Source: a virus. Taken from it: a stretch of DNA of 22,302 nt. Both the position numbers and the translations under genes were made by a program. The notes under the pieces were generated by a model. That model was not told where the DNA came from, did not search any database, and saw nothing but the letters and a program-made list of their open reading frames with translations. The stretch is taken from the UHGV virus genome UHGV-1135478. One strand, 5' to 3'. Below, piece after piece: positions 1,151 to 22,302 of this stretch. Every line of letters begins with the position of its first letter. Position 1 is the first letter of the stretch.

Positions 1151-9166
<8,016 letters not shown>

Positions 9167-19704: not shown

Positions 19705-19733
19705 AAGGTACTCTTCCCTGAGCACCTTGTCAA
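19705..19733 (-). promoter_or_regulatory. Candidate promoter P3 (TTGACA-N17-TACCTT; weak -10)
   Basis: - strand -35 TTGACA at 19728-19733, overlapping the HNH stop; -10 TACCTT at 19705-19710; shares GTTGACAAG context with P2. Confidence 0.3.
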
Positions 19734-20266
19734 CTTAGTTTTGCAAACTCTCCGTGGAGTTTAATAGCAGCTTCACAGTAAGCTTTATGGGCTTCTTCAG
19801 GTGTGTCAAACATACCAAGATGATAGTTTTTACCTTGTAAACGTATCATTGCTCGAAACCTTTTATTTATCTTCTGTACACCTTTTGGCAACCCAGATTG
19901 GGACTTTCTTGACCGATTGCAAGAGTTTTGTGAAGCTGTACAAACCCTTAAATTCAAGTACCTATTGTCCCAACCGTCCCCATTCTTATGGTCAACCTGT
20001 AAGGTTTTATCAGGCAAATATCCATCCACATACAAGATAACTAAACGATTTGCTTGGTAACTCCTTCCATCAATCAGCAACTGAACTGACTTGTGTCCAT
20101 CAGTATTTGTTCTGTAGTTTCCAGCCCTCTTACCTCCAAATCTAGAGTTAAAATTTGCATTACCTTCTCTAAACTTCCAAGTAAAGACCCCTATTTCGGG
20201 GTCGTAGTCCAATAGCTCCTTAAGACGAATTTCTGTAATCATTTCAACACCATCAATGTACCTCAT
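19730..20266 (-). CDS. Free-standing HNH homing endonuclease with C-terminal AP2 DNA-binding domain
   Basis: HNH motif …LQVDHKNGDGWDNRYLNLRVCTASQN…; AP2-like segment …GVQKINKRFRAMIRLQGKNYHLGMFDTPEEAHKAYCEAAIKLHGEF…. Start set to ATG 20264-20266 (RBS AAGAG), overlapping the last 14 nt of the polymerase. Confidence 0.85.
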   Translation of the reverse strand: MRYIDGVEMITEIRLKELLDYDPEIGVFTWKFREGNANFNSRFGGKRAGNYRTNTDGHKSVQLLIDGRSYQANRLVILYVDGYLPDKTLQVDHKNGDGWDNRYLNLRVCTASQNSCNRSRKSQSGLPKGVQKINKRFRAMIRLQGKNYHLGMFDTPEEAHKAYCEAAIKLHGEFAKLS

Positions 20267-20809
20267 ACCAGCTCTTACCAACCTTACCTGTGCCAGTTAC
20301 AAGCGTCTCACTCTTCAAACCTAAATTCTTAGATGCCTGACCATACATCCAGTCAGTTATGGCTTTAACTTCTTGAGTCATACTTTCTGGGCATTCCCAA
20401 CTGTTCTCATCGTGGTATGCCAGCAAAAGTCTAGCACCAATTGCTGGTTTCCGTCCATTTAATTTTGTCAACCCTTCTTCACATGCTCTTCTACAAGCAA
20501 GGTTAATTGCCTCGTTCTGAATCTGACTTTCCGAACCCATGAGCAAATAATTCAATAACTTATGTGGAGATTTACACCACAACCAAGCTCCAGCAACCTT
20601 TACAAAACCCCCTTTAGAGATTGCAGCAGTCTTACCAAACACCTCTTCAAGTGCCTTTTTAGTTGCTTTGTAGTCAGCTTCCAAGTCATCTAGCAACTTC
20701 TTAATTTTAGGGAGGCGTACAAAGTAAGTTTGCTTAGTTAAAGCACCTTCTTCGGTTGTTGATGCTTTAATCGTCTTAGCAAACTTCTCATCACCTGCAC
20801 CGAACAATA
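20253..20809 (-). CDS. DNA polymerase, family A (T7 gp5 / Pol I type), exon 2 (C-terminal)
   Basis: Begins within motif B (…LFGAGDEKFAKT…, cf. T7 …FLYGAGDEKIG…); motif C YHDE; C-terminal …GKSWYEVH typical of family A. Confidence 0.85.
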
Positions 20810-21120
20810 CATCTGGTCAATACACTCGCAAGGTGTACCAGTTCTCTTATGAACTTCTCCGCATTTCTACGGAGTGTCGGACTATATCACGTAGTAGTAA
20901 TACTACCGTTGCACTTGGGAATGGTCATTAGCTTACCACCCTACTCTACTCAGTTCATACATTAAGTATGCTTTTCGATAGTCTCTGAACGTTTCTCTGT
21001 TAGGAATCTCTATAGTTATGTTATTTGCTTTAGGAGTCCTAACAGAGACTTCGCTGCTGATTACCATATCTTTACAGACTTAGGCTTCCAGCAATTCACA
21101 ACGTTTTACATGCGCCACTG
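20810..21120 (-). ncRNA. Group I self-splicing intron (311 nt, no ORF) in the DNA polymerase gene
   Basis: On the - strand: R element GTTCAGAGACTA (20979-20990) and S element GATATAGTCC (20879-20888) form the P7 core. Intron 5' region GCGCAT pairs with exon-1 end ATGCGT (P1, U-G at splice site). Intron ends in G. Stops in all frames. Confidence 0.8.
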
Positions 21121-22302
21121 ACGCATAAATGCCATTCTTAGCTTTCTTACGACCTTTGCTAATCTCATGAAGAAGATTCTCATCCTGAGTAGCTCGACAA
21201 GTCAAGATGTCCTGCTCATCGTTCAAGCTAAAGTAGATACTGTTCAGTGTATGTGCATCAGTCCCTGAATAGACAACGTACAGGTCATTCTCAGAGTCAT
21301 AGCGAAGGTACTTATCAATCTCTGGGTTGAGGTACTCATCAAAGTGTTTGCAGTAATAGCGTCCATCTTCTTGACGAATGAACTCAATCTCTTCTTTACC
21401 TTGTGTTACCGCTTTGGTGAAGTCTTTGTCACCCATAAAGTTACAAAGAAGAACTAGCTGGGCTGAGTTCATATCAACTGAAACAATGTTAGTCCCTTCT
21501 TCACAAGTCCACACCTCCCGCATAGGTGCTCCATAGACAGCAGCACCAGATGGTACGTTTACAATACCATATTGTGTCATACGCCCAGTTGAAGTACCAA
21601 ACACCATTGCACCAGCACTAAGGCGACCATCAGGACGAATCTGGTTCAACCAACCTTTTTCATCATCCTTTGAGTTCTCAATAGTTCTGCGTCTGTGCAT
21701 CAAAGTATAGTATTTAGCAATCTTCTGTCCAAGCTCACCTTCAATCGTATCATAAGATGATTCAGTAAGTTTTGGCGAAGTACGGATTAAGCAAGGCTCA
21801 AGCAAATCTGTGTACTTCTTCACAGACCAGTTATGCTCAATGTACTGGACACCTTCATGTTCAACATAACTCAAACCACACCGCTCAACCATTTCCTGCC
21901 ACTTAGGATGTTTTGTAATCATCTTTTTATTGTCTTTGAAACGACAAACTTTGACAGGACGACCATCTGAGTCTTTCTTGTAGTTCCAGTCATCTGGAAT
22001 CCAACCAACTGATTTCAAGTAGTCTTTAACAACTGCTACCTGAGTCATACGAGAAACTTCGAACTCAATTGGTGTATATGGTGCATCAATCAAACCTGTG
22101 TAGCGACTTGACTCAAGTTCAAAGTGGTTAACGACGTGGCTGTTATAGTACTTCACAGTTTTGACTGTTTTTACTGGTTTCCAGTCTTTGCATTTCTTAC
22201 CAATCTTTGCGTTCAACTCATTGCAAATTGCACGAGCATCCTTCATTGCTACAAAGCCTTCCTTGTACTCTTCACCAGTTACAGTGTTGGTTGGTGTATA
22301 GC
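21121..22302 (-). CDS. DNA polymerase, family A, exon 1 (N-terminal/middle part; 5' end beyond window)
   Basis: Frame open to window edge; contains motif-A-like …VSVDMNSAQLVLL… and the start of motif B …RKKAKNGIYA at the exon end. Predicted spliced junction …KNGIYA-LLFGAGDEK…. Confidence 0.85.

Follow-up and report, generated by a model that had tools for sequence, protein, structure and literature searches.

The family A DNA polymerase gene in the window (the whole 22,302-nt stretch of viral DNA analyzed here) is interrupted within catalytic motif B by what is very probably (at about 93%) an ORF-deleted group I intron, which would be spliced out to leave one polymerase of 899 aa. The 2.1 kb round the intron are 100% identical to Salmonella phage Mushroom (KP143762; Ounavirinae, Felixounavirus), and, judged by its sequence and fold, the Mushroom element is an unremarkable representative of a known phage family of group I introns. 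The polymerase is coded on the minus strand, with its first ~960 nt outside the window edge, and its reading frame breaks between 20807 and 21080, as the sequence-only reading had noted, with ORFs at 21080..22246(-) and 20253..20807(-) on either side of the gap. That reading had taken the gap for a group I intron splitting motif B, a proposal that ORF-bearing and shorter variants at the same site and compensatory changes across six lineages now support, and to which we add that the ORF-less state is most likely secondary and that the element belongs to an already partly documented family.

The group I intron model that had been suggested as a check (RF00028, Rfam) matched over its full length (1-253) with 62.3 bits (gathering score, 50; E 7.5e-14). 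No other Rfam family scored above gathering in the 22.3 kb, and a permissive sub-threshold Rfam scan together with a tRNA scan gave nothing else credible in the rest of the window. The Rfam boundaries (20857..21161) were dropped because the model draws P1 and P2 into the upstream exon; since P1 is misplaced in this way, the true ends were taken from intron-less homologues. A spliced 600-nt query matched many Felixounavirus genomes in one piece (600/600 nt), with identity of up to 94.8% (heid), and the junction region of heid (...TATGCACTGCTGTTCGGT...) could be set directly against that of spliced Mushroom (...TATGCGT/TATTGTTCGGT...; a slash within a sequence marks the insertion site here and below). 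Both encode Y-A-L-L-F-G across the junction, and moving the boundaries by one base gives A-V-L in place of A-L-L. Taken together, the collinearity with heid, the U before the 5′ splice site and the 3′ G define an intron of 311 nt that begins with CAGTGGCGCATG and ends with ...CCAGATG (Table 1). The intron has stops in all six frames, and its longest ATG-initiated sense ORF (44 aa) has no Pfam match, in keeping with the earlier remark that it is closed in every frame and devoid of an endonuclease ORF; an intron-encoded homing endonuclease is present in relatives only. The MFE z-score of the intron is -3.3, and free-energy folding recovers most helices.

Exon 1 ends with ...ATTTATGCGT and exon 2 begins with TATTGTTCGG, and removal of the intron yields ...KNGIYALLFGAGDEK..., with the spliced DNA junction TATGCGT/TATTGTTC, the predicted junction peptide NGIYALLFGAGDEK and the spliced protein ...GRKKAKNGIYALLFGAGDEKFAK... 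and ...GIYALLFGAGDEK..., in which the PF00476 match (Pfam) spans the junction. The insertion falls within the K-x-x-x-Y-G/A-F/L codons of motif B (O-helix) and separates the first base of the Leu codon behind ...K-N-G-I-Y-A from the other two. Against T7 gp5 (TRDNAKTFIYGFLYGAGDEKIGQ) the spliced product aligns without a gap (GRKKAKNGIYA/LLFGAGDEKFAK vs TRDNAKTFIYG/FLYGAGDEKIGQ), which bears out the residue-for-residue correspondence seen from the letters and places the insertion at T7 G527/F528, in motif B and in phase 1. Read through without splicing, the exon-1 polypeptide would end in ...IYASVAHVKRCELLEA; exon-1 translation of unspliced RNA crosses the internal guide and the P3 and P4 strands before it reaches a stop, and this translation of 13 codons into the intron could compete with RNA folding.

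Table 1 Coordinates of the intron, its predicted helices and the neighboring features in the window
Feature	Position	Strand	Basis or remark
Polymerase exon 1	21121..22302	-	Sequence and ORFs; GenBank CDS start at 25365, beyond the window
Polymerase exon 2, including stop codon	20253..20809	-	ORF and spliced frame
Predicted group I intron, ORF-less, 311 nt	20810..21120	-	RF00028, 62.3 bits; ends from intron-less heid, U before 5′ splice site, 3′ G
L1/P10 strand CAGUG; internal guide GCGCAU	21120..21116; 21115..21110	-	Pair list
P3 5′; P4; P5; P6 5′	21103..21097; 21093..21088 with 21060..21055; 21084..21064; 21054..21053	-	Region 21053..21103
In-frame TAA stop	21080..21082	-	13 codons past exon 1, inside P5; ends translation of unspliced RNA
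P6a, 12-bp stem	20994..21048 (loop 21036..21006)	-	Alignment with the 802-nt intron of JH2
P6 3′ strand GU, J6/7, P7 5′ strand GACUA (R element GTTCAGAGACTA)	20979..20990	-	Sequence, Rfam, pair list
P7.1; P7.2 (region 20917..20970)	20970..20956; 20941..20917	-	Folding, pair list
P3 3′; P8; J8/7 and P7 3′ strand UAGUC; S element GATATAGTCC (region 20879..20913)	20913..20907; 20906..20891; UAGUC 20884..20880; S element 20888..20879	-	
P9 (GAAA loop); P9.1; P9.2; 3′ tail; G20810 (region 20810..20874)	20874..20857; 20855..20840; 20839..20819; tail to 20810	-	
Free-standing HNH_3 + AP2 homing-endonuclease gene	19730..20266 (region 19730-20281)	-	PF13392 and PF00847; GenBank 'HNH homing endonuclease'; overlaps polymerase stop

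A full P1-P10 fold, going beyond the P1-P9 folding that had been proposed as a check, could be written out, and its pairing is kept in 14 Felixounavirus introns. P1 consists of the last six nucleotides of exon 1 (AUGCGU; ATGCGT at 21126..21121) and the guide GCGCAU, with U21121·G21115 at the 5′ splice site, while P10 joins CAGUG over 5 bp to the first five nucleotides of exon 2 (UAUUG, 20809..20805), and the last intron nucleotide is G20810. Guide, U·G pair and terminal G are thus where the sequence-only reading had put them, and its R-like and S-like elements pair as P7 (GACUA with UAGUC). The core elements P and Q (P4) and R and S (P7) read AAUUGCUGGAAGCC, AAUCAGCAGC, GUUCAGAGACUA and GAUAUAGUCC, the P3-P8 helices all pair, including the P3/P7 pseudoknot, the P5 loop is GUAA and P2 is absent. 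Peripheral hairpins of the P7.1/P7.2 kind are typical of subgroup IA; here P7.1 is formed by CAUAC with GUAUG and P7.2 by GGGUGGU... with ACCA..CCC, and GAGUAGAGUA stands just before P7.2. Such an arrangement, with P7.1 and P7.2 between P7 and the 3′ strand of P3 and GUA before P7.2, is that of subgroup IA2 as quoted in PMC3428280, and the IA2 polymerase introns of PhiI, W31 and Pf-WMP3 are described there with P7.1, P7.2 and an ORF in P6a, and without P2.

Two further details of the fold were observed. The sequence G/UAUUG is repeated 13 nt upstream of the 3′ splice site, in the 3′ strand of P9.2 (GUGUAUUGACCAGAUG/UAUUG; window 20817-20822 vs 20805-20810 on the minus strand); the duplicate is invariant in 14/14 Felixounavirus introns and represents a potential cryptic 3′ splice site, use of which would lengthen the message by 13 nt and put exon 2 out of frame. 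The P5 tetraloop (equivalent to 21075-21072) is GUAA, GGAA, GAGA or UAAA in near-identical Felixounavirus ribozymes, and the GAAA of L9 is invariant.

Conservation of the pairing was then assessed within and beyond the genus. Among the 14 Felixounavirus introns, 99.6% of the cells in the table of pairs are paired (P1 and P10, 100%), compared with 27-48% in controls in which the partners were slid. Because these sequences are so close, most pairs are invariant and within-genus covariation is thin, amounting to two compensatory changes (U-A to C-G in P8, and one at the foot of the P6a stem) plus six one-sided changes that preserve pairing. Five distant homologues, from Klebsiella phage Kpp-61, a Pakpunavirus, a Berlin-like Yersinia phage, Pectobacterium phage Jarilo, and coliphage Bas94, brought the comparison to six lineages, all of which have the helix order in common and an invariant P7, with many double substitutions in P3, P4, P9, P6a, P7.1, P7.2, and P8 (helices in the five other lineages were assigned by hand, then checked and tabulated by script). 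By analogy with established group I chemistry, we infer that the pre-mRNA would fold with the exon AUGCGU paired to the guide, exogenous guanosine held in P7 would attack 3′ of U21121, the terminal G20810 would move into the G site, and P10 would position exon 2 for exon ligation, a single 899-aa polymerase then being made from the ligated exons.

Within motif B, introns of this family occupy three sites that lie 5-6 nt apart within 11 nt, namely TT/T of T7 F524 (Yersinia and Jarilo, 11 nt upstream of the Mushroom site), T/AT of Y526 (Bas94) and T/TT of F528 (Mushroom, Kpp-61, and Pakpunavirus), each with a matching internal guide, and their hosts comprise Autographiviridae, Pakpunavirus, Felixounavirus, and a 70-kb coliphage. 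Kpp-61 (Autographiviridae) and the Pakpunavirus phages PhL_UNISO_PA-DSM_ph0034 and JHP share codon position and phase with Mushroom (T/TT of the T7 F528 equivalent), and Kpp-61 in addition has the same P1 (AUGCGU with GCGCAU) and J1/3 (GUAAAA); unlike Mushroom, these introns keep the endonuclease ORF, and they carry compensatory changes in P3, P4, P8, P9, and the peripheral helices. A joined polymerase CDS is annotated in Bas94 alone, the Yersinia record is unannotated, and the Jarilo, Kpp-61, and two Pakpunavirus records give two polymerase genes, with no intron annotated in the latter two groups. The related introns with Endo VII-type ORFs that were compared with window 20810-21120 lie at L045:2817-3496, L047:1399-2075, L049:1359-2064, L048:1394-2064, and L046:2848-3556 of our locus set.

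Previous reports cover part of this family. Group I polymerase introns are known from PhiI and W31 (Bonocora & Shub 2004), the Yersinia phages Berlin, YpP-G, and Yepe2, and Pseudomonas phage LUZ24 (as listed in PMC6083498); like Mushroom, this group has a family A polymerase as host gene, an IA2-type fold without P2 and identical P9.1 and P7, and it carries in P6a a related Endo VII-type ORF (51% identity between the JH2 and Yersinia ORFs). The listing of Endo VII-motif ('DHHRN family') proteins in Fang et al. 2018 (Mob DNA; PMC6083498) places those of Berlin, YpP-G, and LUZ24 in a polymerase-gene group I intron and gives those of JH2, EC6, and FSL SP-010 as intron-encoded, so that, by this listing, an ORF-bearing Felixounavirus intron is already on record, in passing; the listing itself gives no structure, boundaries or ORF-less variants. 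The JH2/EC6/FSL SP-010 intron agrees with that of Mushroom in gene, insertion site and flanks (ATGCGT/TATTG), with a ribozyme 97-100% identical, and differs in the presence of a 491-bp segment with a 160-aa endonuclease gene. For another Felixounavirus a published paper mentions 'two introns' among ncRNAs, without detail, and no paper was found in which the ORF-less element of Mushroom is recognized as an intron, its structure worked out, or the three forms treated below set side by side.

Other polymerase introns sit elsewhere in the gene. In E. coli Pol I numbering, PMC3428280 gives site 674 for SPO1, SP82, Bastille, and Pf-WMP3, 676 for phiL7, and 881 for PhiI and W31, the last of which does not match the site that we mapped in Berlin-like phages. 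SPO1, SP82, Bastille, phage K, and Pf-WMP3 resemble Mushroom in that their family A polymerase genes carry IA2 introns at a strongly conserved motif, some with an HNH-type ORF in P6a and without P2 (PMC3428280), but they are inserted at 674 (...SSNP/NLQNIP) and their endonuclease is of the I-HmuI-type HNH kind. The polymerase introns of phage K were rejected as same-site introns, of which the first interrupts the exonuclease domain and the second sits at ...SSNP/ (674-type), with motif B intact; neither was detected by Rfam at E<=0.01. Unannotated sequence that breaks the endolysin of Staphylococcus phage 6ec (L037, around 2400-4500) into several pieces is ~80% identical to the 5′ core (P3-P4-P5) of the Mushroom intron, and a stretch directly behind the RNAP2-like gene of the N4-like Erwinia phage MIF8 (L038, around 2466-2747) matches this core as well; both probably represent additional group I introns that have escaped annotation. 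Together with BLAST matches in a crAss-like phage and Bacillus SP-15, they were set aside as other introns in other genes (endolysin, RNAP2, capsid).

Having placed the element in its family, we explored its distribution in Felixounavirus, where it occurs at an identical site in three length forms (802, 311, and 268 nt) and is absent from ~150 of 258 matching genomes, among them Felix O1 (PMC3185647). The 802-nt form encodes within P6a a 160-aa Endonuclease_7 protein (PF02945, E 1e-19), and the eight ORF-bearing introns that were extracted measure 780-811 nt; P6a is the ORF site in the JH2, Kpp-61, Pakpunavirus, Yersinia, Jarilo, and Bas94 introns, and the Endo VII-motif ORF is missing from Mushroom where sister introns keep it. 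The 311-nt form was found in Mushroom, GEC_vB_NS7, Tf, garuso, warpig, EC106, NJ12, S19cd, and others, and the 268-nt form in ~53 records. Coexistence of full, ORF-damaged and ORF-less versions of an intron at one site is what the homing-cycle model leads one to expect. A comparable population of full, damaged and ORF-less introns is that of the Streptococcus thermophilus phage lysin intron, for which three deletion forms are cited (Foley et al. 2000, as summarized in PMC11878797), and the T4 nrdB intron with its defunct I-TevIII (PMC2790892) offers a comparable series from full to ORF-less, both cases lying in other host genes and involving other endonuclease families. VpaE1_ev108 (LR597658) and VpaE1_ev035 (LR699048) are contiguous across the site, unlike VpaE1 (KM657822), so the polymerase allele was seemingly replaced, or the intron lost, in those 'ev' lines. 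Felixounavirus polymerase and intron sequence is also held by records MG065668 (Campylobacter phage A126) and GU169904 (Staphylococcus phage SA1), which are probably mislabelled or chimeric.

The intron and its host gene appear to have had different histories. Ribozyme parts are 96-100% identical where the adjacent exons are 76-87% identical, and exon 1 of Mushroom is nearest (95.5%) to intron-less phages; taken together, these two observations point to separate histories, as would be expected for a homing element, with the discordance applying to the intron family and not necessarily to the ORF-less copy. Every intron-bearing allele reads ATGCGT/TATTG, and most intron-less alleles read ATGCAC/TGCTG (...TATGCACTGCTGTTC... 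for the intron-less site vs ...TATGCGTTATTGTTC... for the spliced type), so that the two types differ by four synonymous changes, all no farther than six bases from the site. These flank differences fit both the need of P1 for a U and co-conversion during homing. A scan of IMG/VR with the spliced protein gave 31 loci, mostly intron-less Felixounavirus-like genomes that added little diversity. Two IMG/VR copies of phiSUSP1/2-like phages (L015 and L018) have the intron-less alleles TATGCGTTGCTG and TATGCGTTACTG, with the intron-type GCGT directly 5′ of the empty site, a state compatible with precise intron loss or with partial co-conversion.

The splitting of the gene has been described before in other terms, and a reading without splicing has to be weighed. 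In the GenBank record of Mushroom, which lacks any intron annotation, the CDS of the 'DNA polymerase' runs on into the gap and that of a 'DNA polymerase subunit' begins at an internal TTG; the 2015 genome announcement left unexplained a polymerase made up of two genes 383 bp apart without an endonuclease ORF (PMC4392139), and polymerase genes are truncated or split, with the intron unannotated, in every record inspected (~100 Felixounavirus genomes). If this description were literal, two polypeptides would form the active enzyme round a spacer that is a decayed, non-splicing intron relic, and phage 'genes in pieces' that still function are indeed known (T4-type nrd is cited in the announcement, PMC4392139). 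Yet the break falls inside the O-helix, and translation of the second gene as annotated would begin only at a TTG 38 codons past the junction, so that LLFGAGDEK..., conserved from T7 to Mushroom, would be omitted from it. No promoter or terminator signal, nor any promoter-like site, was found inside the intron. All catalytic-core elements are intact, the substitutions in stems keep pairing, and the ribozyme is conserved far above the exons, which would be unexpected for a relic. The break in the O-helix, the lost residues, the silent spacer and the excess conservation together make the two-polypeptide reading highly improbable, and we retain splicing of a group I intron as the preferred one.

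How the intron came to lack an ORF, and whether it still moves, also admit of more than one answer. Since ORF-less forms are the commoner (~64 records vs ~41 with an ORF) and endonuclease invasion of existing introns is an accepted pathway (PMC3984707), the 311-nt or 268-nt form might be ancestral, with the Endo VII-type gene entering later and no ORF loss in Mushroom. The P6a loop of Mushroom, however, retains the 3′ end of the ORF, with its last codons and stop (...AGC AAA TAA; remnant ...CTAAAGCAAATAA), and in the alignment the JH2 intron amounts to that of Mushroom with a further 491 bp, the deletion joining GACTCCTAAA, just 5′ of the ORF ribosome-binding site, to GCAAATAA... (last codons and stop), with ends within an imperfect 15-nt repeat (GACTCCTAAAaCAAA and GACTATCTAAGCAAAT). 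An intermediate is provided by the 780-nt intron of VpaE1, with a truncated ORF that matches over the C-terminal 80 aa, and the homologous introns of the five other phage lineages all have the ORF in P6a. We consider the insertion-later scenario unlikely for the 311-nt form; the deletion argument is weaker for the 268-nt form, which is possibly ancestral. On parsimony, then, the 491-bp difference, the retained ORF end and the VpaE1 intermediate suggest secondary loss, and the Mushroom form is probably a deletion derivative of the 802-nt form. As for mobility, the free-standing HNH-AP2 gene lies ~540 bp from the insertion site, and its product might keep the ORF-less intron mobile in trans by cutting intron-less alleles, with co-conversion, a form of collaborative homing described in review (PMC3984707). 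In Klebsiella phage Kpp-61, too, an HNH gene directly follows the intron-split polymerase. A further analogy counted in favor is T3 gene 5.3, beside the polymerase gene, which is said to cut T7 gene 5 at the phage PhiI intron site. Against this, endonucleases at least 90% identical to that of Mushroom adjoin intron-less polymerase genes (L007, L010, and L036), and such hosts would cut themselves if the target were the empty intron site. Across 40 loci the slot is either empty or filled by diverse HNH-AP2 genes (40-94% identity), independent of intron state; given this lack of correlation the tie to the intron was dropped, and collaborative homing with the HNH-AP2 gene, attractive by analogy, is unsupported and in our view distinctly improbable. 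The slot itself seems to be a hot spot of its own, at which endonuclease genes turn over.

With the preferred reading of an intron that has lost its ORF, self-driven homing would have been lost as well, leaving vertical inheritance as a possible mode of persistence, and spread may occur by recombination or with an endonuclease supplied in trans during co-infection; the presence of the intron would leave the Mushroom allele without an intact intron-less target site. We tentatively hypothesize, while holding it to be rather doubtful, that Mushroom-type ORF-less copies in Felixounavirus shield the essential polymerase from the endonuclease of co-infecting relatives, with the family moving between neighboring sites of one target by reverse splicing or by imprecise endonuclease-triggered insertion. 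Overall, the intron would resolve the puzzle of the two-gene polymerase published in 2015 for an element absent from the annotation of the Felixounavirus records inspected, and as several such phages already serve, or have been suggested, as agents of biocontrol and therapy, correct gene models for their replicative polymerase matter. Conceptually the finding brings nothing new; what it offers is a natural series at one site, comprising intron-less alleles, an intact ORF, a truncated ORF, and two ORF-less lengths, on which the homing cycle and co-conversion could be studied in coliphages and Salmonella phages that are easy to cross.
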